The notes below the pieces were generated by a model that had not been told where the DNA came from, made no database searches, and was given only the letters and a program-made list of their open reading frames with translations. 32,000 nt of DNA from Desulfocapsa sulfexigens DSM 10523 (GTDB taxonomy: Bacteria; Desulfobacterota; Desulfobulbia; Desulfobulbales; Desulfocapsaceae). Location: the NCBI RefSeq assembly GCF_000341395.1, contig NC_020304.1, positions 2,820,001 through 2,852,000 of the forward strand, in the 5' to 3' direction. Positions 1 to 15,969 of this stretch are shown here, piece by piece (positions within the stretch are counted from its first letter, which is position 1; each line of letters starts with the position of its first letter). The position numbers were made by a program, and so were the translations under genes.

Positions 1-2
1 TC

Positions 3-224
3 AAAAAAAGGTGCGTGGAGGGTACAGGAAAGTCTGTTATTCTTCAGTGTGTGGGCAATTTTTTTGAATTCATCCTCTGATTCTTCGTAGAGACAAAGAC
101 CTTCCAGGCCAATTTCAGGTTGAATGCCATGTTGCAGAAAGAGATCAAGGTAGCGATTCTTTAACTCATACCAGGGGGCATTTACGAAACAGCGTGGGGT
201 GATATGTTTGTATTTTGCTTCCAT
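3..224 (-). CDS. N-terminal fragment of a probable xylose-isomerase-like TIM-barrel (sugar phosphate isomerase/epimerase family) protein; runs off the window edge
   Basis: Not in the ORF track. My translation of the minus strand from ATG (224-222) gives MEAKYKHITPRCFVNAPWYELKNRYLDLFLQHGIQPEIGLEGLCLYEESEDEFKKIAHTLKNNRLSCTLHAPFFD, open to position 3. The ATG lies 1 nt after the stop (226-228) of the upstream gene. The pattern ending in LHAPF-D resembles the AP-endonuclease-2/xylose isomerase TIM-barrel family. The family call is tentative. Confidence 0.45.
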   Translation of the reverse strand, partial: MEAKYKHITPRCFVNAPWYELKNRYLDLFLQHGIQPEIGLEGLCLYEESEDEFKKIAHTLKNNRLSCTLHAPFF

Positions 225-225
225 C

Positions 226-1839
226 TTAACGTTCACTCAGGTATTTGATCATTTGGCTCATACTTAATTTAATGCTCGAAGGTCCGGAGCGAATATAGAA
301 ATCCTCCTGCCTGCCTATGGAAAGGAAGACAGGACGACGAACCCGTTCACATTCAACAATACAAATTGTTTTGTCTTTGATGATGGCAATTTTGAGATGA
401 ATAAATCTGGTGAACTCTGCACCAATATGGGTGTTCAGTAGGTTTTTGAAGTGTAGTCGACACTTGTCTTCATTGTCAAAATTATCTGCCTCTGTGCCAA
501 GAATTGTTCCGGAATCATCCACTCCGATGAGAAGAATCCCCCCATCGCTGTTCATAAATCCGACTACGGTTTTCAGCCATGCTACCTCAATTTCTTTTCC
601 TGGTCTTCCGGAATTCAGGTTGGTTCGCATGGTGGATTTGAACTCAAGAGTGGTGGATTCACCGGCTCTGATGAGTGCTGCGACTTCAGTTTCATAGCTC
701 TGAGTGTTTATATGCTGCTGTGGCAAATCCTTTAACTGATAGCTGTACTTTCGAACAAGAAGGACTGTCATTAGAACAGCAAGTAGAAAAATAGAGCCAA
801 CAAGCAGAGCGAAGCGAATCCACTGCCGATGCAGGTCGGAAAAAATATCATCTGCAGGGATGATCACTGCGACCCAGATATCGGGGTTTGATTCGTGGAG
901 CTGGCTAAAGCCAAGCCACCAGTTTTTTCCGCCATTCCTGATGGAGAGTGGTTGGGTGGTCTGTTGTCTGTTTGTTCTGAGCAGGGTTCCCACTGTACTG
1001 AGAAGTTGTTCTGAAAGACTGACTTCTTCGACAGAGGCGCTAACTATTTTGTTTAATCGGTCTTTTCCTGAACTATTCAAGGGTATTCCTTCTTTGTCGT
1101 AGAGTACAATACGGCCGTTAGGGGTAATCTGAAGGTCTTCCAGAAAGGTCATCAGGCTTTGTGTGGTGAAAGAAACACCTGAGACATGGTTACCGTCCTT
1201 GCTGTTACGTATCTTCCACTGAAGGCTTGCTGTGATGACAGTATCTCCAGTCGTTTTCTGAAGATAGGGTTCTGTCATGAAAAATTTGGTGCTGGAAGGG
1301 GTGAGCATGGCACCCTGGAACCAGTTAGCAGTGGACATGGTGTAGCGTCTTTCGTTTACGGTCTCCTGGCCTTCAATCTTTCCGTCAACAAGGCGGGAGG
1401 TTGTGGCGTTACTTTTGTGGGATTCATCTACAAGCCATTCGTCATTGTGGTGAGAGAGTTGGAAACAGTTTTCGTTTGTATCGGCGATGGATATGGAATG
1501 GATGGTTTGTTGAATTTCCATAAGTGCCTGGAACTGGCTGGCGAGAATCTCAGGAGTCTGCATGTTGAACAGCCCGGCTTCCCCCCATTTTCCCAGTATT
1601 CTTAAAATATTTGTAAGTGGATCTGTATAAGATTGGAAATGTGCTGCGACCAGAAGGTTAGCCTTGCCTATAATAGAGGTTGAAACCTCACGCTGGGTTT
1701 TAACACCCTGGAGCATCACTATGGTGAGAATGGCACCGGATATAACGAAAAGGATAAGCAGGATATCACGAAGAAGACGTCTTTTGATATTTCGTGGACA
1801 TCCCCGTATCAGGCCGGAAAGTGTTGAAAATATAGGCAT
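226..1839 (-). CDS. Membrane sensor protein: N-terminal TM, about 300-aa extracytoplasmic Cache-like (double Cache sized) domain, second TM, C-terminal Schlafen/AlbA_2 (formerly divergent AAA_4) putative nucleic-acid-binding domain
   Basis: 537-aa ORF. TM1 is ILLILFVISGAILTIVML and TM2 is FALLVGSIFLLAVLMTVLLV. The region between them has a Cache-like NWFQGA motif. The C-terminus carries AlbA_2 hallmarks: ESTTLEFKS ... GFMNSDGGILLIGVDDSGTILG. There is no HTH, kinase, GGDEF or other output domain after it. Confidence 0.8.
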   Translation of the reverse strand: MPIFSTLSGLIRGCPRNIKRRLLRDILLILFVISGAILTIVMLQGVKTQREVSTSIIGKANLLVAAHFQSYTDPLTNILRILGKWGEAGLFNMQTPEILASQFQALMEIQQTIHSISIADTNENCFQLSHHNDEWLVDESHKSNATTSRLVDGKIEGQETVNERRYTMSTANWFQGAMLTPSSTKFFMTEPYLQKTTGDTVITASLQWKIRNSKDGNHVSGVSFTTQSLMTFLEDLQITPNGRIVLYDKEGIPLNSSGKDRLNKIVSASVEEVSLSEQLLSTVGTLLRTNRQQTTQPLSIRNGGKNWWLGFSQLHESNPDIWVAVIIPADDIFSDLHRQWIRFALLVGSIFLLAVLMTVLLVRKYSYQLKDLPQQHINTQSYETEVAALIRAGESTTLEFKSTMRTNLNSGRPGKEIEVAWLKTVVGFMNSDGGILLIGVDDSGTILGTEADNFDNEDKCRLHFKNLLNTHIGAEFTRFIHLKIAIIKDKTICIVECERVRRPVFLSIGRQEDFYIRSGPSSIKLSMSQMIKYLSER

Positions 1840-1896
1840 AGTGATTGTTTCGTAAACAAACAGATTGGCAGAGAAAACCTTAACAGGTTCAGGAAA

Positions 1897-3291
1897 CTAT
1901 TCCAGCTCACTGGTGCATAAGCGCAGGGAGATATAGCCAGCGATCCCTGCAAACAGCGATGCCGCAAGAATACCAATTTTTGCATTGAGCAGATGCTGTG
2001 CATTGTCAAATGCCAGGCCTCCAATAAAAATAGACATGGTAAAACCGATTCCTGCCAGCAGGCTGACACTTGCGATCATGGGAAGAGTAACACCATCCGG
2101 TAGTCGACTTAAGCCGATTTTAATTATCAGCCAGGAAAAGAAGGTGATACCTATAAGTTTTCCACCAATAAGTCCGCCAATGACGCCAATGGTCACCGGG
2201 TCTGAAAATGTCGTTCCAAGTGTTGAGAAATCAATGGGTATTCCTGCGTTAGCAAGGGCAAAAATGGGAATAATGAGAAAGGAGACCCATATATGGAGAT
2301 TATGCTCCATTCGTTGTAGCGGGCTTTCAATACAATGAACAAAATTTTCCATGGATTGGAGGAGTTTTTGCTGTTCACTGTTTTGCATAATGTGCCTGTG
2401 GTCCTCCTGAATAGTCTCGAATCTGGTGATTAACTGTCGCATTCGTCTGACAAACGGTATGGCATGACAATGGGAGTTGGCAGGAACGGTGAGGGCTGTT
2501 ATTACACCAGCAAGGGTTGCATGGATGCCCGATTCAAGCATTCCGAGCCACAAAAGCAGACCAAAGATTACATATGGCAGAGGGCGACGGATTCCTGCAA
2601 TGTTTGAAAGGAGGAGCATAACAAAGGCTAAACCTGCAAAGAGTAGTGCAAGGAGGTTTATCTTATCTGTGTAAAAGGCGGCAATGACCAGAACTGCGCC
2701 AAGGTCATCAACGATGGCGAGTGCCAGTAGAAAGCCAACGAGGGATCGTGGAATGCGCGATCCAAGGAGGGCAAGAACTCCCATGGCAAATGCAATATCC
2801 GTGGCCATGGGAACCCCCCAGCCAGCGAGAGCGTCACTGCCACTATTAATTGCAGCATAAATAAGAGCAGGAACAACCATGCCACCAATGGCTGCAGCAA
2901 TTGGCAAAATGGCCTGTTTGCGGTCTGCAAGCTCTCCAACCAGGATTTCCCGTTTGATTTCAAGACCAACCATAAAGAAAAAGAGGGCCATCAGGCCATC
3001 GTTGATCCAGTGCTGCAGAGAGTGGCTTATAGAAAAAAAATCACTGCCAATGGTGAATTTATGATGGAGTACTGCATCGTAAACCGGATACATTGCAGAG
3101 TTGGCTAAAACCAGTGCCCCAACAGTACAGCCCATAAGCAGTAATCCGGAGGACGCTTCCTTATGGACAAAATCTTCAAAGGGGGTGAGCGCCTGTTTAA
3201 AACTCCGTTGTATTGAATTGCCGTTCAAGACCTTTGAAAGGCAATTGGATGTGTCCTCTTCGTTTGAGAAGTGTTGGTCATTATCAGTCAT
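1897..3291 (-). CDS. nhaA: Na+/H+ antiporter NhaA
   Basis: HWINDGLMALFFFMVGLEIKRE and multiple TM segments are typical of NhaA. The ORF is open to 3366, but its first 25 aa (MMVIRFCYFLFW...) look non-native, so I chose the ATG at 3291 (MTDNDQHF...). The start is uncertain (3291 or 3366). Confidence 0.88.
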   Translation of the reverse strand: MTDNDQHFSNEEDTSNCLSKVLNGNSIQRSFKQALTPFEDFVHKEASSGLLLMGCTVGALVLANSAMYPVYDAVLHHKFTIGSDFFSISHSLQHWINDGLMALFFFMVGLEIKREILVGELADRKQAILPIAAAIGGMVVPALIYAAINSGSDALAGWGVPMATDIAFAMGVLALLGSRIPRSLVGFLLALAIVDDLGAVLVIAAFYTDKINLLALLFAGLAFVMLLLSNIAGIRRPLPYVIFGLLLWLGMLESGIHATLAGVITALTVPANSHCHAIPFVRRMRQLITRFETIQEDHRHIMQNSEQQKLLQSMENFVHCIESPLQRMEHNLHIWVSFLIIPIFALANAGIPIDFSTLGTTFSDPVTIGVIGGLIGGKLIGITFFSWLIIKIGLSRLPDGVTLPMIASVSLLAGIGFTMSIFIGGLAFDNAQHLLNAKIGILAASLFAGIAGYISLRLCTSELE

Positions 3292-3550
3292 GGGATCGTT
3301 GCACCTGTCATAAGGGGTATTGGGGTGTGTCCAAAAAAGGAAATAACAGAACCTGATCACCATCAAAACTCAGCTTTGCAACCCGGAGCTGTTTCGTGTC
3401 GATCATATGGGACGCCATAAACCCATCCATGGGAGCTCTACTGCGGACGTCCAGGCCGCAGATGCCCATATAATCGACCCGAAACAACTCCTCCTCATGC
3501 GGGTAGGCTGAGGATTGGTGTGATCAGGTAACAGAATGCTCATTTTCCTG

Positions 3551-4171
3551 TCATGGAGCCTTTTGGCTTGCTGTGAGTATTGTAATCCTTTCTGTGATTT
3601 CATCGGAAAGTTTTGCGAGCCCTCGGCTGAGAGCTTTTGCCAATGCATCAAATCCATCGTTTTCAGGAGGTATCTTGTAAATTGAGATTGTCTGATACAG
3701 CATATCCTTCCCGTTAGAGGCAAGAATCTTCCAGCGAACGGTCACAGAAGCATTACCATCGCTATCTTTTTCAAAATGGAGGAAGTTTGTAACGACTTGC
3801 AGACTATCCGGTTCCAGGGAATCAGGGAAAATATGGATTCCCTCTGCTCCAAACTCAAGACTCAGATTTGTGATAAGGGCAGTCGTCAGCATTTCCTTGA
3901 GATCACCAGCCCATCTGTGCTGTTCCTCGATGGTAAGAGAGTAGCTTGAGTTCTGGGTGACTAATTGTCCCTGGTCAAGAAACGAAGCGATGTGAATCGG
4001 CCCCACGAGTATATTAGTCAGGGGTTTGTCAGGAACGGCTGCTGTTTTCTGGTTAATGGGTCCCAGAGTGTAGTAATAGATGGGAAGTGGCTGTTTTATG
4101 CATCCGCCAGCCCAAAGAAGCAGGGACAGAGCTGACAGGAAAAAAATTCCAGGAACTATTTTATTGTTCAT
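3551..4171 (-). CDS. ABC-type transport auxiliary lipoprotein (PqiC/DUF330-like) of Mce/Mla-type systems
   Basis: Signal peptide with lipobox LLWAGG-C. A YYYTL motif follows directly, and the size (about 200 aa) is typical of the PF03886 family. It lies co-directionally downstream of MlaE/F/D-like genes. Confidence 0.75.
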   Translation of the reverse strand: MNNKIVPGIFFLSALSLLLWAGGCIKQPLPIYYYTLGPINQKTAAVPDKPLTNILVGPIHIASFLDQGQLVTQNSSYSLTIEEQHRWAGDLKEMLTTALITNLSLEFGAEGIHIFPDSLEPDSLQVVTNFLHFEKDSDGNASVTVRWKILASNGKDMLYQTISIYKIPPENDGFDALAKALSRGLAKLSDEITERITILTASQKAP

Positions 4172-4216
4172 ACCAGGTGAAAACTCCGATAATGTATTGT
4201 TGCAAAGAAAGCGTTA

Positions 4217-5665
4217 TCAAGCAGATACTACCCGATTTCTTCCATTCGCCTTTGCTTGATAGAGAGCCCTGTCGGCTTTGCCTATCAGCTTGTCTCTTGT
4301 GTCTTCCGGCTGATATTGTGCCACACCGATACTTACAGTTATAGGAAGTGTTTGATTCTGAGAGGAAGTCGGATTGTTTATTACTGCAAGTCGCAGCTCC
4401 TCTGCCATATTCGATGCTGTATCCAGAGTACACCCCTTCAGGAGCATGAGAAATTCCTCCCCTCCCCATCTGCATATTATATCTGTTTTCCGCAACCGGG
4501 ACGTAATGAGCCTGGCAAGATTTTTCAGTACAGCATCTCCAGCTAAATGTCCGTATGTGTCGTTGATTTCTTTGAAATGGTCGATGTCGAGTAACAGTAG
4601 CGACAGATTCTCGGGCTTCCGGCTTTGGTCGAGAAGGATAGGATTGACTAACAGATCCAGTGCCTGGCGGTTATAGAGACCGGTTAATTTATCTGTGGTG
4701 GCCATATGTTCGATATCTTCCTGGTAGGATGAAATCACGCGATTAATGATGAATAAAATGATGGTGGTAACAACTGCACAGAATAACAGATTGATAAGAA
4801 GGGTTTGAAGTAATTTGGCTGTTCCTTCCAGTTCACTCTGAATGACCACGAGATACCAGTCAAATTCTTTGATAAACCGGGTGTTCAGAGATATCGGATG
4901 TCCGTCTATTTTGGACTGTAAGGCAACTGTCTCGGTGGAAGTCATTTGAGTCAGAAACTCTTTGCTCTTGAGAAAGATGTTCAGTTGTGCTGTTTGTTGC
5001 TGGCGCTGTTTGTCTGAGGTGTTACTGAGTTTGATGTTTCCCAGGCGGTCAATGAGAAAAATATCTCTGTTATAGGTTTCCTGGTACTGGTCGATGAGTT
5101 TTTGAACTGCATCCACTGCCAACCCAACCCCGGTTGCACCAATAAAATTCCCCTTGTAATCGTGAACTCGATAATTGATAAAAACGGTCATGGTGTCGTT
5201 GTTTGCCTGATCAATGTCCACGTTGATCTCAAAGTCATCTGACATTTTTTGTACTCGAAAATACCAGGAATCACGTTCTTCAGCTTCCTGTACCTGTTTC
5301 ACAAGGCCATCGGGATGATAGTAATTTCGAGTCTGATCAGAGACGAAAAAAGACGTAATGGTGTTGTATGTTTGTTTGATTTCTGTGAGGTATCGTATGA
5401 CAGCATCATGGTTCTGTTCTTCATTGATTACCCAGTCCCGCAAAAAGGTATCTGATGCCATAAGGGAAGAGATAAAGATGGGGCGCAGAAGATCGCGTTG
5501 GATTTCTGAATAAACAGTATCGCTGGTGAGTGGTAATTCACCGTGAGTCATCTGATCTCTGAGAGAGGCTAGTGAGATGAAGTAGCTGGCCAGGCTGGTA
5601 AGCAGGAAACCTACTATCAATAGAATACTTAGAAATGTAATCAGATTTTTTTTATGTTTGAACAT
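4217..5665 (-). CDS. Diguanylate cyclase with periplasmic Cache-type sensor (TM-Cache-TM-GGDEF)
   Basis: N-terminal TM (LITFLSILLIVGFLLTSLASYFI), about 260-aa periplasmic region with Cache-like RDSWYF, and a second TM. The GGDEF domain has an intact GGEEF active site and an RxxD I-site (RKTD) five residues upstream (RKTDIICRWGGEEF). Confidence 0.92.
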   Translation of the reverse strand: MFKHKKNLITFLSILLIVGFLLTSLASYFISLASLRDQMTHGELPLTSDTVYSEIQRDLLRPIFISSLMASDTFLRDWVINEEQNHDAVIRYLTEIKQTYNTITSFFVSDQTRNYYHPDGLVKQVQEAEERDSWYFRVQKMSDDFEINVDIDQANNDTMTVFINYRVHDYKGNFIGATGVGLAVDAVQKLIDQYQETYNRDIFLIDRLGNIKLSNTSDKQRQQQTAQLNIFLKSKEFLTQMTSTETVALQSKIDGHPISLNTRFIKEFDWYLVVIQSELEGTAKLLQTLLINLLFCAVVTTIILFIINRVISSYQEDIEHMATTDKLTGLYNRQALDLLVNPILLDQSRKPENLSLLLLDIDHFKEINDTYGHLAGDAVLKNLARLITSRLRKTDIICRWGGEEFLMLLKGCTLDTASNMAEELRLAVINNPTSSQNQTLPITVSIGVAQYQPEDTRDKLIGKADRALYQAKANGRNRVVSA

Positions 5666-7560: not shown

Positions 7561-8682
7561 CTAAATCCCAATAACGTTGAAGAAGAAGGTGAAACCGGCA
7601 TCGGTGATCACAATAAGAACAATGGCTGTTACTACGGCAGATGTTGTTGCCTTGCCGACGGCGTCGGCACTGCGTCCACAGTGCATCCCCTTAAGGCAGC
7701 CACAGAAGGCAACCAGGTATCCGAAAACCACGGATTTAATCATTCCAACCAGGAAATGGTTGAGATGAATGGCATTGATGGTCTGTTCGTAATACAAAAC
7801 CGGACTGATATCGAGAGAGAGGCAGCCAATGAAGAAACCACCGAGTATTCCAATAAAGTCGGCACAGATTGCCAGAAGAGGCATCATAATGATAAGGGCA
7901 GTCAATCGTGGCAGCACTAAAAAATCAAGAGGATTGATCCCCATGGTTTGTAGTGCGTCGACCTCCTCATTTACCTGCATGGTGCCAAGTTGGGCAGCAT
8001 AGGAGGCACCCGTTCGACCAGCCATGATGATGGCCGCCATCATTGGTCCCATTTCTCTGGTCATGGCAAGACCGACAAGGTTTGCTACGTAAACGTCAGC
8101 CCCAAACATCTTCAGCTGGACAGCCCCTATAAAGGCCAGGGTGAATCCAACCAAAAATGAAATGAGCGCTACAATTGGAAGAGCTTGAGGACCACAATTG
8201 TAGAGAAAAAAACTCAGATCTTTCTTCAGAAAACGGGCTCGTCCAGTAAAAAAACGAATATAGGATAAAAGGATTTCTCCAGTAAACGATAGCATTTCTA
8301 TGGATTGCTTCCACAGTTCAATAACATGCATGCCGATTTCGGCGAGTATTCCAGGGTTGTTTAATGTGTTATCTGGAGGGGCGAGATTTTTTTTAAGAGT
8401 GAGTTGTAGAAGCTTGCGAACACCGGAAGGCAAGCCTTGTGTATCAACGGGAATGGCATGGTTCTCGGCAATTTCAGTAATACGGGAGAGTTCAACAAGA
8501 AATCTGCTGTCCCACTCAAGCAAGTGCTTGGTATTAAAAGAAATGGCTTTTGTCTGGGGAGTGAAAAACTGGGCGATATCAGGGAGCGCACAGGGTTCAA
8601 CTTGAATGGTCCAAGAACCAAGGAAGGTTAGACAAAGTGTGTTGAAGTTATGCTTTGCCTGCAGGGAGCAATCTGGGGTCAT
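7561..8682 (-). CDS. MlaE-family ABC permease with N-terminal STAS/MlaB-like extension
   Basis: Conserved MlaE core (GPMMAAIIMAGRTGASYAAQLGTMQVNEEVDALQTMGINPLDFLVLPRL), preceded by about 110 aa of soluble STAS-like sequence. Confidence 0.9.
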   Translation of the reverse strand: MTPDCSLQAKHNFNTLCLTFLGSWTIQVEPCALPDIAQFFTPQTKAISFNTKHLLEWDSRFLVELSRITEIAENHAIPVDTQGLPSGVRKLLQLTLKKNLAPPDNTLNNPGILAEIGMHVIELWKQSIEMLSFTGEILLSYIRFFTGRARFLKKDLSFFLYNCGPQALPIVALISFLVGFTLAFIGAVQLKMFGADVYVANLVGLAMTREMGPMMAAIIMAGRTGASYAAQLGTMQVNEEVDALQTMGINPLDFLVLPRLTALIIMMPLLAICADFIGILGGFFIGCLSLDISPVLYYEQTINAIHLNHFLVGMIKSVVFGYLVAFCGCLKGMHCGRSADAVGKATTSAVVTAIVLIVITDAGFTFFFNVIGI

Positions 8683-8730
8683 TGGACTATATCCATCGGA
8701 GTCACTGTCTGTCCTGGGACGAAGCTGTTT

Positions 8731-10098
8731 TCAGCGAGAGGAACGCAGGAGACGAAAATGCAGCAGACAGGTGGCAGTTATTAGTGAAAGTATCCCGATA
8801 AGATACCATGGAAAGTAGTAAATGGATAGTCTGAAAGCTTCATTTTCAATAAGAGAGACAGTGAAATCAGGGGAAGCTTTGCTTACCGAATCGCGTAGAT
8901 TAGCTATAATTCCAGCGTAAAAAATCCCTATGAATCCATATGCCGCATTAAATGCGAGTCCCTTATAACTGAGGACGGTTGCACGCTGGTGTGGTTCAGC
9001 GATCTGATTCAGATAATGACTGGTGAAAAATGAGGTGAGCATCATGGTTACAAATATCAGTGCCATGGGGAGTATGCCAAGGATAGGGGTGAAAAAAGTC
9101 AGGCCCCATAGTGAGAGGAGGGCGAGGCCTCCGACCAGGGCGACGTTAACCGTAGGGCCAAAATGTTCAACCATGGCTCTGGCAATTCGTGGCACAACAA
9201 GACCAAGCATCGCAATACAGGAACCAATCACACCAAAACTTGCTTCGGGGAGATCAATGATCCGGTAGTACTGACTGGTCATGGTGACAAGCATGCGAAG
9301 CACATGGTCAAAACTCATCCCGAAGAGAATAACTGCCAGGGCCGTAGGAGTATGGAGAATCCAAGCACCAGCATTCAGTGTTATCCTGCTGACGTCCTGT
9401 ATCCTCTTCAATGCAGTGCTTGCAAGCGCTGGTTTGTTTTTGTCTGTGACGGGATCATGCATCCCCATGGTGGTGAAGAGGGTTAGAATGCCGAGGCCAA
9501 GTGTAAGATATATGGGGAAGCGCATGGTGACCTGCTGGTCAAGTTCAACCTGTAGTCCTAACCAGTGCAGGCCGCTGTTTACAGTGTCGGGTGAATAGAC
9601 CAATGCTCCAATGGTCATGGTGATGATGTAAAAGAAATTACGTACCCGCATCTGAACATCTAAAACTTTCGGCCAGTCCTCAGGGTCTCCTTCTGCCACA
9701 AGGGTGTCGTAAGCCATCGCTTCGTCGGCACCACTGGCAAGGGCCTCTGCCAGGCCACTGAGAATACGGTTAAGAAGAAATGCACCGAAGACGAGTTTAC
9801 TGTTCCCCAGAGGGACAAAGGACAGGAGCATCATTTCAGCGATCATCAGCAGACTAGTGGTGACCAGGAGGCGTTTTCTCCCAATAAGGTCGGCAAGTGC
9901 CCCGGATGGTACTTCAGCAAGTACGATGGTGAAAGCCCACACCGTATTGAGCAGGGCAAACTGTTCAATGCTTAGACCATAATCCAGGAAGAGAATTGTG
10001 AAAACTGGATAATAGAAGCGTACATTGAAGAATGCACGAAAGGCAATAAAACGCCTTACATTGGAAAAGGTAAAGGGGGAGTGGCTGGAAAAGTTCAT
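8731..10098 (-). CDS. MFS transporter
   Basis: 455 aa with about 12 predicted TM segments. MFS-type loop motif GALADLIGRKR between TM2 and TM3. Confidence 0.85.
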   Translation of the reverse strand: MNFSSHSPFTFSNVRRFIAFRAFFNVRFYYPVFTILFLDYGLSIEQFALLNTVWAFTIVLAEVPSGALADLIGRKRLLVTTSLLMIAEMMLLSFVPLGNSKLVFGAFLLNRILSGLAEALASGADEAMAYDTLVAEGDPEDWPKVLDVQMRVRNFFYIITMTIGALVYSPDTVNSGLHWLGLQVELDQQVTMRFPIYLTLGLGILTLFTTMGMHDPVTDKNKPALASTALKRIQDVSRITLNAGAWILHTPTALAVILFGMSFDHVLRMLVTMTSQYYRIIDLPEASFGVIGSCIAMLGLVVPRIARAMVEHFGPTVNVALVGGLALLSLWGLTFFTPILGILPMALIFVTMMLTSFFTSHYLNQIAEPHQRATVLSYKGLAFNAAYGFIGIFYAGIIANLRDSVSKASPDFTVSLIENEAFRLSIYYFPWYLIGILSLITATCLLHFRLLRSSR

Positions 10099-10186
10099 AC
10101 CCCATCATGTGCAGCATAGCTCTGTTTGTCAAGAATTTCCAACTGTACTGAAAAGATTGATGTCGCGTTCCGACAGCAATATTGCG

Positions 10187-10202
10187 TGCTCTTTCTGTGC
10201 CA
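10187..10202 (-). promoter_or_regulatory. Weaker sigma54-type -24/-12 candidate facing the MFS gene
   Basis: The minus strand reads TGGCACAGAAAGAGCA, with GG-N10-GC spacing correct. The -12 element is AGC rather than the conserved TGC. It lies about 90 nt upstream of the MFS ATG at 10098. Confidence 0.3.
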
Positions 10203-10379
10203 CGATCCTATCTGTAAAACCTGCAACACTTTCGTAGTGAAAATACAGCGAAGATGCGTGTCGCAGGCGCCTTGAACACCAAAAGTGTTGCGTTGGATGA
10301 AAAGGAAGCCTTCGTTAAAATTATAGTAAAAACAAGTTAGTAAATGGTTTTTGCTGCTTTTCTGTTTGTTTGTGAAAAT

Positions 10380-10395
10380 TGGCACTGATAATGCT
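10380..10395 (+). promoter_or_regulatory. Sigma54 (RpoN) -24/-12 promoter candidate
   Basis: TGGCACTGATAATGCT matches TGGCAC-N5-TTGCW with exact GG-N10-GC spacing and a conserved TGC at -12. It lies about 50 nt upstream of the ATG at 10444 and is preceded by an AT-rich tract. Confidence 0.5.
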
Positions 10396-10443
10396 CTATC
10401 CAATATAAGAAATATAAGATTATAAAGAAATATGGAGGACGTC

Positions 10444-10638
10444 ATGGCTGTCGAAACAAAAAGTACTACTCAAAAACAGAGTGATGTCGGATATGAAACT
10501 TCAAGTTTTGCTCTGGGGACCGGGATGGTTCTGGCAGCCCTTGTGGGGATATGGGGAGTGATTTGTCTACTGAGTGCTTTCGCTACTGTTGGTCCTTTAA
10601 ATGTGATCAAAGGATATCTCTCAGCTTTGCTTGGATAA
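10444..10638 (+). CDS. Small (64 aa) single-pass membrane protein, unknown family
   Basis: GGAGGA lies 5 nt upstream of the ATG at 10444, inside the track ORF that starts at 10432. There is one hydrophobic helix (GMVLAALVGIWGVICLLSAFATVG). The translation-start context is nearly identical to that of the next gene. Confidence 0.6.
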   Translation: MAVETKSTTQKQSDVGYETSSFALGTGMVLAALVGIWGVICLLSAFATVGPLNVIKGYLSALLG

Positions 10639-10682
10639 AAAAACAATTGGTGTATTTAAAAATACTTTAACAGGAGAATGTC

Positions 10683-10985
10683 ATGGCCGAGAACAATTCA
10701 AAGACAGCAGGAAGAATTATTTTAGTGGCAGGGTTAGCAATGTGTCTCTGGGTTGGAGCTGCTCTTGTAAGCGCCCTTTCACAGGTCGGCTGGTCGGTCA
10801 GTACACTTGCCGGACAGTATATGGTTGCAGTCGGAATGGTTAAGCCTCTCCACACTCTGGTTGATTACTACACCCACATTAAAGGAATCGAGTATTTACT
10901 CTGTGTAGCATTTTTCGTTGCATTCCCGGTATTCTTTAAATATGTAAATAAGGCACCAAAAGCTGCAGCTACACTCAAAAAGTAA
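10683..10985 (+). CDS. Small (100 aa) membrane protein, N-terminal part paralogous to the preceding gene
   Basis: AGGAGA lies 5 nt upstream of the ATG. There are two or three hydrophobic segments. It shares the pattern W-x5-L-x-SA-x3-VG with the 64-aa protein and ends just before a terminator hairpin. Confidence 0.65.
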   Translation: MAENNSKTAGRIILVAGLAMCLWVGAALVSALSQVGWSVSTLAGQYMVAVGMVKPLHTLVDYYTHIKGIEYLLCVAFFVAFPVFFKYVNKAPKAAATLKK

Positions 10986-11024
10986 GAAAAATACTGGCTA
11001 AAAAAAGATAGTGCTTTCTTTTGT

Positions 11025-11070
11025 CCCTCTTGTTTATCAAAGAGACTCTTTGCTAAGCAAGAGGGTTTTT
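11025..11070 (+). terminator. Rho-independent terminator after the small-protein pair
   Basis: CCCTCTTG (11025-11032) pairs with CAAGAGGG (11058-11065), with an inner CAAAG/CTTTG stem, followed by TTTTT (11066-11070). Confidence 0.6.
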
Positions 11071-11280
11071 GTGGAATGGAGTTATTGTGAAGGATAGAAA
11101 AAAACGGATTAACAGTATGGGAAGGGGTGTTTTTGGGATGCTGGCAATCGGTACGTTGCCGATTCTCTTTATGAACCCAGGGCAATACTTCTTTGGTCTG
11201 ATTGTTTGCGGGGGACTTTCATTCGGTCTGGCTCATACCCTGGTCTGAGAGTTGAACTGCCAAATACCACAAAAATATTC

Positions 11281-12489
11281 TTATTGAAATTTCTCCTGAA
11301 TTGCACAGAGGACATCGGTTATTTCAAAAAATGCCTGGACGAGTTCAGGGTCAAAATGTTCGCCACTTTCTTTCTGAATGAGGTTATACACCTTTTCTTT
11401 TTCCCACGGTTCTTTATAACAACGGCTGGAGCTCAGAGCATCAAACACGTCAGCCAGGGCAACAATTCTGGCAGCCAGTGGTATGTCCTTTCCAGCCAGA
11501 GCCTGGTTAGGGCTATTTTTATCTGGAAAGTTCGTCAGGTTTGGATAGCCGGTACCGTTCCACTTTTGATGGTGATGAAGGGTTACTTCGTGGGTCATCT
11601 TATCGAGTTCCGTGGAAGTGCTGTTGAAAAGTTCGGCACCAAAAGTGGTGTGTTTTTTTATAATATTGAACTCATCCTTGGTGAGTCTGGCTGGTTTTTT
11701 TAAAATGATATCAGAAATGCCTACTTTCCCAGCATCATGGGTCATGGCTGCCAGGCTGATAAGGTCTCGGAAATGATTTATTTCTGAGTCAGGTAGCCCT
11801 TTTTTTTTGGCCCAGCGCTGATAGATTTCAACACTGAATGCTGAAACCCGCTGGACATGAGCCCCGGTTTCTTTGGGATCATGAAGAGACGCCATTTTCA
11901 CCATGCGAAGGATGGTCTCGCGGTTCAGTATACCATGTTCAATAATCATTGAGGCACTATTAGCAAAAAGGCAGGCCATTGTCTTACTTCTTTCAGAAAA
12001 GACAGAGGTTTGTCCCTGTTCATTCTGAGCGTTTATAAGTTGTATTACACCAACAAGTGAATCATTAGAGGTGAGAAGAGGGATGGTGAGAGATGAAGCT
12101 GTGTGGTAGTTATTTTCTTCGTCGAAGGAAGGGTTGAAACTATAAGGTACGGTGGCAGGAATTTGATAGGCGTCATCAATTGAAACCGTCTGTTTAGTCT
12201 GGGCGCAGTAGCCAACGATTGTGTGACTGTCGATGGGAAGTGTCATTTTAGCATACTGGGCAGCTCCGGCTCCATTTCTTCCAAAGAGGGTGTCGTTTTG
12301 GACATGGTTGAAAACAAGAGTGTCATTTTTAACAAGATAGATGGAACCGGCATCAGCATTGGCAAGTTTACGGGACTCGAAAAGGATTCGATCAAGAATC
12401 ATATCCATCCCTTTGAGTTGATTGAGGGAACGAATAATTTCAAGAACAGAGTTGACAGTATTGGTATCTGGTCGCGTTGTTGTTTCCAT
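11281..12489 (-). CDS. GAF-domain HD-GYP phosphodiesterase (predicted c-di-GMP hydrolase)
   Basis: N-terminal GAF-like region (ADAGSIYLV ... SLVGVIQLINAQ). HD-GYP motifs are AAMTHDAGK, HHHQKWNGTGYP and ALADVFDALSSSRCYK. I chose the ATG at 12489, which has GGGG 6 nt upstream and lies 20 nt after the cyclase stop. The track ORF extends to 12543, overlapping the cyclase. Confidence 0.9.
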   Translation of the reverse strand: METTTRPDTNTVNSVLEIIRSLNQLKGMDMILDRILFESRKLANADAGSIYLVKNDTLVFNHVQNDTLFGRNGAGAAQYAKMTLPIDSHTIVGYCAQTKQTVSIDDAYQIPATVPYSFNPSFDEENNYHTASSLTIPLLTSNDSLVGVIQLINAQNEQGQTSVFSERSKTMACLFANSASMIIEHGILNRETILRMVKMASLHDPKETGAHVQRVSAFSVEIYQRWAKKKGLPDSEINHFRDLISLAAMTHDAGKVGISDIILKKPARLTKDEFNIIKKHTTFGAELFNSTSTELDKMTHEVTLHHHQKWNGTGYPNLTNFPDKNSPNQALAGKDIPLAARIVALADVFDALSSSRCYKEPWEKEKVYNLIQKESGEHFDPELVQAFFEITDVLCAIQEKFQ

Positions 12490-12509
12490 ATCACACCCCT
12501 GTCTTTTTT

Positions 12510-14645
12510 TTATTTTGAAGTCAGTGCCCAGACTCCCTCCCATTGCGGTGGCGGATTCTCCTGAAGAACTTTACATTTGTTAAGATATTTTATAGCCGAT
12601 GGGTCTTCGTCTACTATTGTATTGAATTGAATCACAGCGGATTCAAAATTTCCAATATAAAAATTCTGGAGAGCTTTTGAGAAAGTTTCTAGAGTTTTTT
12701 TCTTTTTCTGATATTCAGAAGGTAAGAAGGGTTCATAAACTCGAATTGGAATTTTCTTTCCAACAACGGTTAAATTTGCAAGTTCCCGACAGAAGAAGGT
12801 GTTGTTTAAGAGTTTATAGGTGGATTCGGAAATCATTGTATAGCTGTCAAATTGCTTGTTGGCGCCCTCAAGCCTTGCAGCAAGATTAACAGCGTCACCG
12901 AGCATGGAGTAGTCGAAACGATTTGTTGAGCCAAGATTCCCGACAACTGCTGAGCCCGAATTAATGCCGATGCGCATATGCATTTCATGGCCACATTGTT
13001 TTAGAAACAGTGGGCGCAATTCCTTCAGTCGCTTTTGACAACGTAATGCGGCAGATACTGCCCGTACCGCATGATCAGGAGTTTCTAAGGGTGCGTTCCA
13101 AAAAGCTATTATGGCATCACCTTCGTACTTATCAATCGTTCCCTCTTCCTCAAGGATTATATCTGTCATAGCCGAGAGGTAGTCGTTCAAAAGCTCGATC
13201 AGTTGATCAGGTTCGAGATTTTCAGAGATAGAGGTGAATCCTTCAAGGTCTGAAAAGAAAATAGTCAATTCCTTACGATCCCCCCCGAGTTGCAATCTGT
13301 CAGGATCTTCTATGAGTTGTTCGATAACATATGGGCTTAGATAATGGGCAAATGAATGTTTGATAAAACGCCGTTTTCTCCCTTCCTGCATATAACTGAT
13401 CAAAAAGCTGAGAATGATGGTTCCTCCCACGGAGCATTCAAAAGGAAGTATTTCAAAACGAAATCCGATGAAAAAGAGAAAAAAAGACAGAGCAGGCGGA
13501 ATGAGAAGAAAGAACAATGCAATGATCGTCATATATATCGGACTTGAAAAATAAGCGAGAAGGAGACCAAGGAGAATGGTACTGAAACTCAAAACAAGGA
13601 TTTTGAGATTTTGACTTAGAGGGCTGATAAAATCATTGTTCAGGAGATTGTCGAGAAAAGTTGCATTGATTTCTACCCCGGAGAAAATAGCACCTACCGG
13701 GGTTGGGCGAAGATCAAAAAGACCTGGTGCGGAAAAGCCAAAGAGTACATATTTTTTCCTTAGTTGTCGATTGATTGCAGGATCTGTGTGTTCGCCATCT
13801 CTGTAGAGCATTTCATCTTTAATAAGAGTTGCGGCACTTATGCGGGTGTAGATCCCTGGCGGACCCCGGAAACGAACCAGGGCCTGCCCGGATATGTTCA
13901 TCGGGATCACAGCATCACCAACGCTGAGATGCTGATTCAGAAGAGAAACTTCCGTATCGGGATGAGCGGCAAGATATAAGCCAAGCCCAAGAGAGGGGAG
14001 TGGAATACCGACTGCGAAGACCAGTGGATGGAGAGAACGGTAAATACCATCTTGATCTGGATCATGATGAACATTGCAGAGAACAGCGGCGTTTTGGGCG
14101 ACTTCCGGGATGGGCATGGTGAGGAAGTTGTACGAAGGTGTATTGTCTGTTTTTTTGACAAGCGTGGCTGTGGTTGCAAGGGAAGGAAGTGGAATGTCAT
14201 CTGGCCATGTGGAGAGTTTTCCGTGGATGTTGCCAGGAAATATTGAGCCGGCTGCAAAATTTTTACTCTTCGCAATAGCTGTGCCGAGTGCAGTATCGTC
14301 AGAGACCCCAAAGCTTGACGATTCGGTAAAAAGGACATCAAAACCAATTCCCCTGGCCTGATGCCGATTAATGGTATCCAGGATGGCACCATAGAGTTCA
14401 CGGGGCCAGGGCCAAGAGATGCCCATGTTTTTCTGGGCCCATTCCAGGCTTTGCTGGTCGACCAGTACAATAGTGATATCCTCACTACGAGGAGAAGGCG
14501 AAGCCAGCATCATACTCTGAGTATCCCAGACTTTGTTTTCCCAGGCAGTAAGCATTCCCGATTGCCAGATGGCTATAGCAAGAAGAATGCTTACACCTGC
14601 TGCCCCAAACGCCTGAAATAATCTGTTCCTTCTTTTATTTTTCAT
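12510..14645 (-). CDS. CHASE2-sensor class III adenylate cyclase
   Basis: N-terminal TM followed by a CHASE2-like periplasmic domain (ITIVLVDQQSL ... WPWPR ... GFDVLF), then three TMs. The cyclase core has metal Asp residues (FSDLEGFT, GDAIIA), substrate-specifying Lys (DKYEGD) and Asp (FDYSMLGD), and Asn/Arg (VNLAARLE). The K/D pair predicts ATP as substrate. The start overlaps the M48 stop as ATGA. Confidence 0.92.
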   Translation of the reverse strand: MKNKRRNRLFQAFGAAGVSILLAIAIWQSGMLTAWENKVWDTQSMMLASPSPRSEDITIVLVDQQSLEWAQKNMGISWPWPRELYGAILDTINRHQARGIGFDVLFTESSSFGVSDDTALGTAIAKSKNFAAGSIFPGNIHGKLSTWPDDIPLPSLATTATLVKKTDNTPSYNFLTMPIPEVAQNAAVLCNVHHDPDQDGIYRSLHPLVFAVGIPLPSLGLGLYLAAHPDTEVSLLNQHLSVGDAVIPMNISGQALVRFRGPPGIYTRISAATLIKDEMLYRDGEHTDPAINRQLRKKYVLFGFSAPGLFDLRPTPVGAIFSGVEINATFLDNLLNNDFISPLSQNLKILVLSFSTILLGLLLAYFSSPIYMTIIALFFLLIPPALSFFLFFIGFRFEILPFECSVGGTIILSFLISYMQEGRKRRFIKHSFAHYLSPYVIEQLIEDPDRLQLGGDRKELTIFFSDLEGFTSISENLEPDQLIELLNDYLSAMTDIILEEEGTIDKYEGDAIIAFWNAPLETPDHAVRAVSAALRCQKRLKELRPLFLKQCGHEMHMRIGINSGSAVVGNLGSTNRFDYSMLGDAVNLAARLEGANKQFDSYTMISESTYKLLNNTFFCRELANLTVVGKKIPIRVYEPFLPSEYQKKKKTLETFSKALQNFYIGNFESAVIQFNTIVDEDPSAIKYLNKCKVLQENPPPQWEGVWALTSK

Positions 14646-15553
14646 ACCCCCTTCATTGCGGCCTGAAAACGTGAAATGCGTGATGGGTCGGTTTTTAGTT
14701 TGTCCTCTTTTCCAATAATATTACTGATGTCTTCTATTCTACTCTCCGGGCTAGGATGGGTTTTTGCAAAATCCATTCCTCCGGGTTTAAGATTCTTTTT
14801 CATAACTTTCAGCATTTCAATAAGTCCCTGACCGTTATAGCCTACTCGTTGCAGTATCATAACAGCTGTCTCATCTGCCTCAGTTTCAAACGAACGGGAG
14901 TAACCACTGCTTATCATAGTTGAGGTGATGTCTCCTATTGAATCTTCAAAGGTGTTGGTTAAACTGGCAATGTCTGAGTTCGCAAAATTTTTGGTTCCCT
15001 CAAGGGCCAGAATTGAAGTTGCTTTGGTGATTCTGTCCTTTTCGATGGACTGCAGACCATGCTTGTGCTGGACATGAGCTATTTCATGGGCCAGAACAGC
15101 TGCGAGTGAATTTTCATCAGAACAGCATTTCAACATTCCGCGAGTAACAAAAATGAGACCTGAAGGAGTGGCAAAAGCATTGATTTCAGGAGAGTCAAGA
15201 ACCATAAAGTGATATCCGTCGTAGAGTTCTGGCAGGTCTGAGAAGCGGGATAATGTCTGTCCCAGAAGGTTGATATAGGAAATGGTCGGAGCATGTTCAT
15301 AGGGCTGAAATTTTTCAAGAACGATGGCTCCAATAGTTCGACCGATATAGTACTCCTGTTCTGGGGTGATATCTTCCAAGGCCTTGGAAACTGCATTATA
15401 ACTTTTCGTTGCTGAATCGACATACTTCGTTGCCGAATTTAAGGCGGAGGATATGTCTCCAAAACCAAAGCCCTGGAGAAGCATGGACGAAGCGGTTAAA
15501 CCCGCACCTGTGAGGCCTATACGGAGGAAACTTCTTCTATTCATGTTCTTCAC
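14642..15553 (-). CDS. M48-family zinc metalloprotease with twin-arginine (Tat) signal peptide
   Basis: HEIAHVQHKH (HExxH), downstream ETEADE and THPSPESRI as in peptidase M48. The N-terminus NRRSFLRIGLTGAG fits a Tat motif. The GTG start at 15553 has GGAGGT 6 nt upstream and overlaps the preceding stop as GTGA. Confidence 0.88.
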   Translation of the reverse strand: MKNMNRRSFLRIGLTGAGLTASSMLLQGFGFGDISSALNSATKYVDSATKSYNAVSKALEDITPEQEYYIGRTIGAIVLEKFQPYEHAPTISYINLLGQTLSRFSDLPELYDGYHFMVLDSPEINAFATPSGLIFVTRGMLKCCSDENSLAAVLAHEIAHVQHKHGLQSIEKDRITKATSILALEGTKNFANSDIASLTNTFEDSIGDITSTMISSGYSRSFETEADETAVMILQRVGYNGQGLIEMLKVMKKNLKPGGMDFAKTHPSPESRIEDISNIIGKEDKLKTDPSRISRFQAAMKGV

Positions 15554-15969
15554 ACTTCACCTCCTGTAGGATGGAGATTACCGGCCTTGAGGAAGGCTTC
15601 AATTTCTTCCTGGGAAACAGAGCTTTTCTCCATTTTATCCACCATATTAAAATTGGCGTTTGCATTCCGCTGGCGAAACTTTTTCTCAACCTGCCGGTTA
15701 AAACCTTTACCGGCGAGGGCTATTTCATCGGAATCAGCAGCTTTAGAGATATCGCCGGCATGGGGTTTGAGTACAATCTCTTTAGTGGTCATGGCGGAGC
15801 TGTGCAGCCATCCCTGATTCCCTCTTGCATCGACCTTAAGCCAGGAATCTTTGGTTTCCAGAACAGCTAAGCGGTCACCATAATGGACAGTTGATATGAT
15901 TTTTCCGAGAAAAGAAGGACTCTTTCGCAGTTGACTGCTTCGTACTTGAACACTTTGACTTGTCGTCAT
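15550..15969 (-). CDS. Bacterial SH3-domain protein, no recognisable signal peptide
   Basis: VQVRSSQLRKSPSFLGKIISTVHYGDRLAVLETKDSWLKVDARGNQGWLHSSAM is SH3b-like (SH3_3 type). It is the first gene of the overlapping four-gene cassette. Confidence 0.7.
   Translation of the reverse strand: MTTSQSVQVRSSQLRKSPSFLGKIISTVHYGDRLAVLETKDSWLKVDARGNQGWLHSSAMTTKEIVLKPHAGDISKAADSDEIALAGKGFNRQVEKKFRQRNANANFNMVDKMEKSSVSQEEIEAFLKAGNLHPTGGEV

Follow-up and report, generated by a model that had tools for sequence, protein, structure and literature searches.

Kinases, chemoreceptor arrays, nucleotide cyclases and DNA-binding domains are regarded as the endpoints of bacterial transmembrane signaling. A survey of dCache_1AA receptors listed chemoreceptors, kinases, GGDEF/EAL domains, cyclases, phosphodiesterases and phosphatases as outputs, and no nuclease (PMC8915833). 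In the present study, we analyzed a stretch of 32,000 nucleotides (nt) of the Desulfocapsa sulfexigens DSM 10523 genome (NC_020304.1, positions 2,820,001 to 2,852,000; hereafter the window), which contains a gene for a protein of 537 amino acids (aa) with an extracytoplasmic double-Cache (dCache) sensor and a cytoplasmic Schlafen/AlbA_2 domain. This window protein shares its fold and its topology, with the sensor between two transmembrane (TM) segments, with the dCache_1/dCache_1AA receptors, including PctA, Tlp3 and Mlp24 as well as histidine kinases, cyclases and Ser/Thr kinases.

Mammalian Schlafen RNases and SAMD9/9L are translation shut-off enzymes directed at tRNA and rRNA. The AlbA_2 domains of Slfn13, SLFN11, SLFN12, SLFN14 and SAMD9/9L have the same fold and the same acidic triad positions as the window protein, but these enzymes differ in having two lobes per chain or a large multidomain build, in being soluble and in being regulated by interferon or stress. 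Slfn13 cleaves tRNA and rRNA, and cleavage is lost or reduced when E205, E210 or D248 is mutated (PMC5862951). The sites of Avs9 and SAMD9 have been described as three to four acidic residues (PMC12680541). CbCash is the first characterized prokaryotic Schlafen nuclease (E17, D22 and K24, with Mg2+; PMC13462974), and recent surveys of prokaryotic Schlafen/AlbA_2 proteins cover cytoplasmic, defense-linked architectures only (including PMC12680541).

Like the family described here, Cash has a prokaryotic single-lobe Schlafen domain with an E-x4-[DE]-x-K motif, fused directly to a small-molecule sensor (PMC13462974). Ligand-induced rearrangement of the Cash oligomer switches its activity, and the enzyme cleaves tRNA loops (PMC13462974). 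By analogy, this sensor control of a Schlafen nuclease offers a precedent for a receptor with a nuclease output. Cash differs in being soluble and defense-linked, with a cytoplasmic Csx15/CARF-like sensor that binds cA4 from type III CRISPR (PMC13462974). The window protein, in contrast, has an extracytoplasmic dCache sensor across two TM segments, a C-terminal putative Schlafen nuclease and no CRISPR or defense context, and Pfam found no Csx15/CARF-type sensor in its 537 aa. Soluble bacterial AlbA_2 proteins, such as DIP2311 (3lmm; AlbA_2 with ATPase-like and helix-turn-helix (HTH) domains) and the DUF262–AlbA_2 proteins, share the AlbA_2 fold; they are cytoplasmic and multi-domain and often lie beside restriction-modification (R-M) or BREX systems, whereas the family of the window protein has no ATPase, HTH or DUF262 and is anchored in the membrane behind a sensor. 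Cache receptors and sensor-fused Schlafen nucleases are each known kinds, and their combination is recorded in automatic domain annotations. A literature search returned no paper on Cache with Schlafen, AlbA_2 with dCache or Schlafen with transmembrane architectures, which agreed with the statement of an earlier sequence-only reading of this DNA that it knew of no experimental characterization.

Receptor architecture and sensor domain

The gene (226..1839, minus strand) is an ATG-initiated open reading frame (ORF) of 537 aa, whose translation in the ORF list contains ESTTLEFKS and GGILLIGVDDSGTILG. The product matches, at 100% identity, a Desulfocapsa sulfexigens DSM 10523 protein that NCBI names 'HTH domain-containing putative transcriptional regulator'. 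It consists of a short tail in the cytoplasm, TM1, a periplasmic double-Cache domain of 298 aa, TM2, a conserved linker of 29 aa and a single SLFN_AlbA_2 domain (Table 1). Kyte-Doolittle 19-residue windows exceeded 1.6 at about residues 20-48 and 338-365 and nowhere else, indicating two TM segments. Basic residues flank both segments (PRNIKRRLLRD preceding TM1 and RKYS following TM2), which fits an N-in/C-in orientation with residues 45-342 outside and 365-537 inside. The full-length AlphaFold2 model, built from a 69-sequence alignment, had a mean pLDDT of 80.4. In this model, helix 19-87 runs from TM1 into the periplasm and is followed by two PAS-like α/β modules, helix 329-364 includes TM2, and a low-confidence non-helical stretch (369-376) leads to a compact α/β domain.

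Pfam and NCBIfam gave no match at E≤1 to HAMP, HisKA/HATPase_c, MCPsignal, GGDEF/EAL or Guanylate_cyc in the 537-aa protein and no match to HTH, winged-helix or Trans_reg_C families; the sole NCBIfam match was noise (E=0.14; 11.6 bits, cut-off 330), and Pfam matched no family besides AlbA_2 and dCache_1. Because an HTH is undetectable, the sequence does not support the NCBI name as an HTH regulator. The NCBI names of homologues vary and include 'ATP-binding protein', 'RNA-binding domain-containing protein' and 'putative DNA binding domain-containing protein'. The sequence-only reading had proposed an extracytoplasmic Cache sensor, two TM segments and a lone cytoplasmic AlbA_2 domain with no conventional output module, and Pfam, the models and Foldseek agreed on this architecture. 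The architecture and the conservation of the putative active site described below are secure, and would surprise a signaling specialist.

The periplasmic part matched Pfam dCache_1 (PF02743) only partially, at residues 162-270 (profile positions 89-204), with 30.4 bits under the 45-bit cut-off; the precomputed PF02743 assignment is present in many homologues. A family profile searched against the PDB matched solved dCache ligand-binding domains at E=2.5e-10 (7w0w) to 1e-7, with PctA at 6.5e-8. Foldseek of the periplasmic part against the PDB returned dCache ligand-binding domains throughout the top 50 listed (E=1e-7 to 1e-10; target TM-score ≤0.68), including those of Tlp3, PctA/B/C, Mlp24, TlpA/Q and histidine-kinase sensors. 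On the basis of these profile and model matches, the assignment as a true double-Cache domain is solid despite the sub-threshold Pfam score. The dCache_1 match, which the sequence-only reading had suggested looking for, thus missed the Pfam threshold, but the fold and the remote homology were found, and the periplasmic region has the ligand-binding fold that had been proposed.

In PctA, the dCache_1AA amino-acid motif consists of Y121, R126, W128, Y144 and D173; binding is 61-fold weaker in R126A and abolished in D173A or D173N (PMC8915833). Mapped through the profile alignment, these positions correspond to residues 166, 171, 173, 192 and 223 of the window protein, which carries Y166, A171, W173, Y192 and S223 (window nt ~1171-1344, minus strand). 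The motif is incomplete, its essential Arg and Asp being replaced by A171 and S223. To place this pocket in the family, we used an alignment of 79 distinct species-level homologues from genome assemblies. The complete [YF]xxxxRxW…Y…D motif was kept in 48 of them, all outside the Desulfocapsa clade (e.g., loci L052, L056 and L066), which makes an amino-acid sensor the most likely founder of the family. Throughout the Desulfocapsa clade (≥51% identical), the Arg is changed to A, S or T and the Asp to S; a second small group of Desulfobulbales has lost the amino-acid motif altogether. Judging from these substitutions, the ligand pocket looks to have been retuned clade-wide in Desulfocapsa, and the window protein would respond to something other than a ligand of the amino-acid motif. 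The clade-wide pocket change coincides with linkage to the Na+/H+ antiporter gene nhaA, described below.

The Schlafen/AlbA_2 domain and its proposed function

Pfam SLFN_AlbA_2 (PF04326) matched residues 394-525 with E=4.9e-20 (72.7 bits, cut-off 25.3) over positions 1-117 of the 118 in the profile, within the region of about residues 385-537 where an AlbA_2 domain had been proposed. A separate model of residues 356-537 had a pLDDT of 88 and a pTM of 0.79. Foldseek of the predicted C-terminal model gave 19 PDB matches with E<1e-3, all of them Schlafen/AlbA_2 folds, and the next match had E=0.23. The matches included SAMD9 (7ksp, 9o0d), SLFN14, Slfn13, SLFN11, SLFN5, SLFN12 and the bacterial DIP2311 (3lmm); those to mammalian Schlafen/SAMD9 proteins had E-values of ~1e-5 to 1e-4, with a sequence identity of just 12-21%. 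Both Pfam and the model indicated one Schlafen lobe per chain.

The phmmer alignment to rSlfn13 (5yd0_A, 366 residues comprising 26 of tag and 340 of protein; chain index = residue number + 13) placed E394, E399 and D442 at E205, E210 and D248, and the profile-level alignment also placed D442 at D248. The domain thus has both the Schlafen-type fold and acidic residues at the catalytic positions of rSlfn13, which bore out its reading as a Schlafen core. The spacing of E394, E399 and K401 matches the CbCash pattern E-x4-[ED]-x-K, with K401 corresponding to K24; this comparison is with the published motif pattern alone, and a PDB sequence search returned no structure of CbCash or another prokaryotic Schlafen protein. 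E394, E399, K401 and D442 were invariant in 79/79 homologues, and D441, next to D442, varied freely among D, N, A and E. An invariant E/E/K/D set beside a variable aspartate is the pattern that would be expected of a catalytic site.

Our preferred reading, which we hold with roughly even confidence, is that the protein is a stand-alone inner-membrane receptor with a nuclease output, that is, a ligand-regulated, membrane-tethered endoribonuclease. The topology, both folds, the invariant putative catalytic residues, the fixed architecture and the non-defense chromosomal context are directly supported. In the proposed mechanism, the periplasmic double-Cache domain would bind a small ligand through a pocket that is of the amino-acid type in most of the family; the ligand of the window clade is possibly tied to ion or osmotic status, given the neighboring genes. 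The protein would dimerize as dCache receptors do, and the ligand signal would pass via TM2 and the conserved YSxQLKDLP segment, repositioning the AlbA_2 lobes. Single lobes would have to pair or oligomerize to form an RNA clamp, and the re-paired lobes would switch endonucleolytic cleavage of tRNA, rRNA or other structured RNA on or off at the membrane, which in turn would tune translation or growth. We infer the lobe pairing because Schlafen nucleases need two lobes or an oligomer and dCache receptors are dimeric. The two lobes of Slfn13 form a pseudo-dimer, SLFN11 dimerizes, and Cash is active once filaments align its catalytic interfaces (PMC5862951, PMC13462974). The flexible stretch at 369-376 in the model would argue for control by proximity or oligomerization over a rigid piston or helix rotation.

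Several points weigh against a receptor nuclease. Some Schlafen-fold proteins chiefly bind nucleic acid, and SLFN5, unlike its relatives, is without RNase activity. AlbA_2 domains commonly carry the E/E/K/D constellation, which proves neither activity nor an RNA substrate, and the top Foldseek match was a SAMD9 domain crystallized with DNA (7ksp). The linker between TM2 and the domain is predicted to be partly unstructured, which makes a conformational signal harder to explain. The window protein is without the amino-acid motif that would point to a ligand. A constitutive membrane RNase would also be toxic, and tight regulation must be assumed.

ToxR and CadC combine an N-terminal winged helix, one TM helix and a periplasmic sensor, without a phosphorelay. 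The window protein resembles them in joining a periplasmic sensor and a cytoplasmic, putative nucleic-acid-interacting domain in a single chain, but it crosses the membrane twice, carries its output at the C-terminus and has no winged HTH. If it were nevertheless a ToxR-like membrane-tethered regulator, the AlbA_2 domain would bind DNA or sequester RNA uncut, and the ligand would alter transcription, for example of an adjacent transporter operon. This would suit the NCBI name of the protein and the 'putative DNA binding domain-containing protein' label of homologues, as well as the top structural match to a DNA-bound SAMD9 AlbA_2 domain (7ksp) and the match to a DIP2311-type protein; the invariant basic residues K401, R405, K415, K423 and R517 are likewise appropriate for nucleic-acid binding. 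However, the protein ends with AlbA_2 and has no detectable HTH or winged helix, and the separate HTH modules of the soluble AlbA_2 'regulators' are missing. The three acidic residues and the lysine kept in 79/79 homologues, next to the variable D441, form a catalytic rather than a binding signature. Overall, we regard a ToxR-like regulator as unlikely, though not negligible. Of the two functions offered by the sequence-only reading, the RNA-targeting effector is therefore favored over the ToxR-like DNA binder, because the Schlafen residues are invariant and no HTH or winged helix is present.

In the eukaryotic stress sensor Ire1 of the endoplasmic reticulum, a sensor on the far side of the membrane controls a cytosolic endoribonuclease via oligomerization. 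Ire1 is an analogy only: its kinase and KEN RNase are unrelated to the Schlafen fold, and the window protein has no kinase and no homology to it. As a more specific and more tentative form of the receptor-nuclease reading, plausible but short of probable, the family may be an Ire1-like receptor RNase in which dCache gates a Schlafen tRNA/rRNA endonuclease, so that extracellular nutrient or ion signals set translation capacity in a housekeeping rather than immune use of Schlafen. If this is true, translation capacity would be set without a second messenger, phosphorelay or transcription factor.

A receptor ending in a nuclease would, if true, add an output class in which signals from outside the cell control RNA directly and post-transcriptionally. 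Bacterial Schlafen/AlbA_2 proteins have so far been read as immune effectors, and this family is conserved, chromosomal and non-defense, with an intact putative active site. The amino-acid motif in the sensors of 48/79 homologues makes a link between amino-acid sensing and tRNA cleavage testable. The family is also compact, with ~530 aa, one gene and well-predicted soluble domains.

Family distribution, gene neighborhoods and defense context

A word-indexed search returned 475 homologues with E≤0.001; the best 120 were nearly all 505-551 aa long, with a few shorter fragments, and carried the precomputed PF04326 assignment, many together with PF02743. When 1.84 billion cluster representatives (50% identity) were scanned exhaustively by HMMER, with the C-terminal 182 aa as the query, 5,553 AlbA_2 relatives were returned at E≤0.001, 430 of them at E≤1e-30, so that the family has at least 430 clusters. 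Among the top 150 of these clusters, the domain match lay at the extreme C-terminus in all, and 116 proteins were 477-566 aa long. Thirteen of 14 shorter proteins inspected were N-truncated fragments that started inside the Cache domain or at TM2. Since the matches were all C-terminal and the short ones mostly fragments, this AlbA_2 subfamily appears to exist essentially only as TM–dCache–TM–AlbA_2. Alternative architectures were considered and rejected, as the shorter matches proved to be fragments of this arrangement, with the exception of P0125. In this metagenomic protein of 385 aa, an unrelated N-terminus of ~170 aa precedes the last part of the Cache domain, TM2 and AlbA_2; it is either a chimera from misassembly or a frameshift, or an uncommon variant of the architecture.

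A pattern-based scan of species-representative genomes indicated that at least 178 species encode a relative, which is a lower bound. The carriers include, in Desulfobacterota, Desulfocapsa, Desulfobulbaceae, Desulfopila and Desulfosediminicola, as well as Geobacteraceae; further carriers are Candidatus Competibacter, Sedimenticola, Chromatiales and other Gammaproteobacteria, Myxococcales/Polyangiales (Myxococcota) and Calditrichia. Across the 79 homologues, identity relative to the window protein was highest in the AlbA_2 domain (mean 68%, minimum 53%), followed by the juxtamembrane linker (mean 52%) and the periplasmic domain (mean 27%, minimum 15%). The tail residues L22, R24 and D25 were conserved in 74-76 of the homologues, and the linker residues Y365 and P373 in 78 and 76, respectively. 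A conserved output with a divergent sensor suggests that a highly conserved target is paired with a diversifying sensor.

For the neighborhood comparison, 87 loci were used, and their 595 flanking ORFs were clustered all-against-all. The nhaA gene lay directly upstream in 24 loci, in Desulfocapsa and a few Desulfobulbales relatives; in a metagenome-assembled Desulfobulbaceae genome it ends 9 nt ahead of the gene, and the downstream genes differ. The gene for a xylose-isomerase-like TIM barrel lay directly downstream in 20 loci, all of the Desulfocapsa clade. Thus, the TIM-barrel gene, which had been put forward as a possible conserved neighbor, is conserved within that clade and not across the family. 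Both genes were rejected as family-wide partners, being confined to Desulfocapsa and close relatives, and clustering revealed no universal neighbor among the flanking ORFs. The lack of a family-wide neighbor fits a self-contained sensor-effector.

In Desulfobacterota, the gene immediately upstream on the same strand was repeatedly an ion transporter or channel, of unrelated families. Besides NhaA, a CPA2 Na_H_Exchanger with TrkA_N was found in loci L033 (4373-5992) and L039 (4303-5982), either overlapping the gene or only a few nt away; several of the gaps measure ≤20 nt. MscS was found in L043 (3547-5964, ~18 nt gap), CLC in L087 (3472-5559) and an OAD β Na+ pump in L038 (4182-5696); in L040, MscS and NhaA lay downstream instead (7582-9894 and 10181-10502). 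Proteins with ≥7 TM segments made up 9 of 109 immediate neighbors versus 7 of 300 more distant ones, a difference that is weak statistically (Fisher p=0.016). The adjacency of ion transporters suggests a link to ionic or osmotic homeostasis in these Desulfobacterota lineages.

Close linkage to transporter genes in several lineages could also mean local regulation by a ToxR-like protein, but the family has no conserved neighbor operon throughout, and the gene is not divergent to its neighbors. The same transporters and channels of unrelated families directly upstream would fit a structural fusion, in which AlbA_2 is a dimerization or anchoring module, for example for the adjacent transporter, without a nucleic-acid function; the conserved N-terminal tail and juxtamembrane motifs could then be protein-contact sites. 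However, the Schlafen active-site residues are the most conserved positions, a transporter neighbor is absent at most loci, and we know of no precedent for such a fusion, which we consider highly improbable.

At 9 loci of a single gammaproteobacterial clade, a squalene/phytoene-synthase gene stands on either side of the gene, with an amine-oxidase (HpnE-like) and an SDR gene after them, and the gene looks like part of a squalene/hopanoid-precursor operon. Loci flanked by squalene/phytoene-synthase genes are L054, L066 (4889-5827 and 8946-10328), L070-L072, L074, L075, L080 and L083. At four gammaproteobacterial loci, L057 (7574-8776), L067 (1375-2481), L076 (7618-8835) and L078, a gene of the CCA-adding/poly(A) polymerase family (PolyA_pol head, RNA-binding and HD domains; minus strand) lies convergent just downstream. 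The placement of a tRNA 3'-end repair enzyme beside a putative tRNase may be chance synteny.

A further explanation is an anti-phage or abortive-infection effector, in which periplasmic sensing of an envelope or infection event would unleash the Schlafen nuclease on tRNA or incoming nucleic acid. The patchy spread across distant phyla is compatible with such a role, as is a weak and partial PADLOC match of the 537-aa protein to pAgo (Schlafen part; E=0.0011, 14.8 bits). The closest plasmid AlbA_2 domain (L088; S. meliloti pSymA, CP140933.1 66375-68510), 41% identical along 149 aa, ends a DUF262 protein of 711 aa whose gene adjoins a type I R-M subunit M gene, and may point to a defense-module origin of the output domain. 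Against this explanation, the window and the homologous loci are of housekeeping and envelope character: no defense or cas genes were found in the window, and no cas genes in related loci. For 149 flanking ORFs taken from a diverse set of 59 loci, PADLOC gave isolated single matches to SspH, mad8 and capP as well as ZorB matches that are generic MotB/OmpA proteins, and Pfam assigned ordinary housekeeping families. None of the 72,556 plasmids or 50,697 phage records searched by tblastn contained a full-length copy. In addition, synteny is maintained throughout a genus-level clade, most members have a nutrient-type amino-acid motif, and the effector keeps 53-86% identity between phyla, whereas defense genes evolve fast. 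We consider a defense role distinctly unlikely; the family departs from the usual defense setting of AlbA_2.

Features of the window

The coordinates of the gene, its parts and its direct neighbors are collected in Table 1.

Table 1. Gene, protein segments and adjacent genes in the window (positions in nt of the window).
Feature	Position	Strand	Basis
Complete gene, TM–dCache–TM–AlbA_2, 537 aa	226..1839	-	Stop codon 226-228; start position common to full-length homologues
N-terminal cytoplasmic tail, residues 1-24, basic, R-L-L-R-D motif	1768..1839	-	Charge and conservation
TM1, residues ~25-44	1708..1767	-	Kyte-Doolittle >1.6 windows starting 20-30; within model helix 19-87
Periplasmic double-Cache (dCache_1-like) sensor, residues 45-342	814..1707	-	Partial Pfam match, family profile, Foldseek
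TM2, residues ~343-364	748..813	-	Kyte-Doolittle >1.6 windows starting 338-347; model helix 329-364
Juxtamembrane linker, residues 365-393 (YSYQLKDLPQQ...)	661..747	-	Conserved; no HAMP, coiled coil or Pfam domain
Schlafen/AlbA_2 domain, residues 394-537, cytoplasmic	229..660	-	Pfam PF04326, model, Foldseek, conservation
Putative catalytic motif E394-x4-E399-x-K401 (ESTTLEFK)	637..660	-	Alignment to rSlfn13, CbCash pattern
D442 (the later D in GVDD), third acidic residue of the putative catalytic site	514..516	-	Aligned to rSlfn13 D248
nhaA, Na+/H+ antiporter, upstream neighbor	1897..3366	-	Pfam Na_H_antiport_1, E=1.4e-146
AP_endonuc_2 (xylose-isomerase-like TIM barrel) gene, 5' part, downstream	1..224	-	PF01261

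The nhaA stop ends at 1897, 57 nt from the ATG at 1839, and the gene's own TAA (226-228) is separated by one base (G) from the TIM-barrel ATG at 224; both distances agreed with those given in the sequence-only reading. No terminator-like site was found in the 57-nt gap. From this spacing, co-transcription of the gene with nhaA and the TIM-barrel gene is plausible. Promoter and terminator scans over 1-4400 gave counts no higher than in shuffled sequence and were set aside; the sole promoter-like site near the gene ends downstream of its ATG and is uninformative on a promoter of its own. The nhaA ORF read from TTG encodes 489 aa, the gene on the public contig encodes 464 aa, and homologues align from residue ~20-40, which makes an internal ATG near 3291 the probable true start. 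The full AP_endonuc_2 product on the public contig (L001) has 268 aa and matches PF01261.

On the minus strand, the gene belongs to a run of envelope and transport genes comprising MFS, MlaE, an ABC ATPase, MlaD, dCache–GGDEF, an ABC_trans_aux lipoprotein, nhaA, the gene itself and AP_endonuc_2. Farther upstream in the window lie GAF–HD, CHASE2–cyclase, MscS, an RND efflux system and other genes. The dCache–GGDEF gene (4217-5665, minus strand) encodes an unrelated dCache_1 receptor, a dCache–TM–GGDEF diguanylate cyclase, and is embedded between Mla-like ABC transporter genes and the ABC_trans_aux lipoprotein gene. The possibility that the sensor of the window protein is a local duplicate of this protein was rejected, as the two have no meaningful similarity. 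In locus L002, an opposite-strand Response_reg–GGDEF gene occupies the place of the dCache–GGDEF gene.

Rfam and tRNA scans of the window gave no match. A region of ~1.2 kb between the MFS and GAF–HD genes (10099-11280; GC 0.41) has no long ORF and no Rfam or tRNA match, merely small plus-strand ORFs (68 and 100 aa) with hydrophobic segments. Beyond it, at 11281-15969 on the minus strand, lie overlapping signaling genes encoding GAF–HD (HD_5), a CHASE2–adenylate/guanylate cyclase of 711 aa, an M48 peptidase and an SH3_3 protein.

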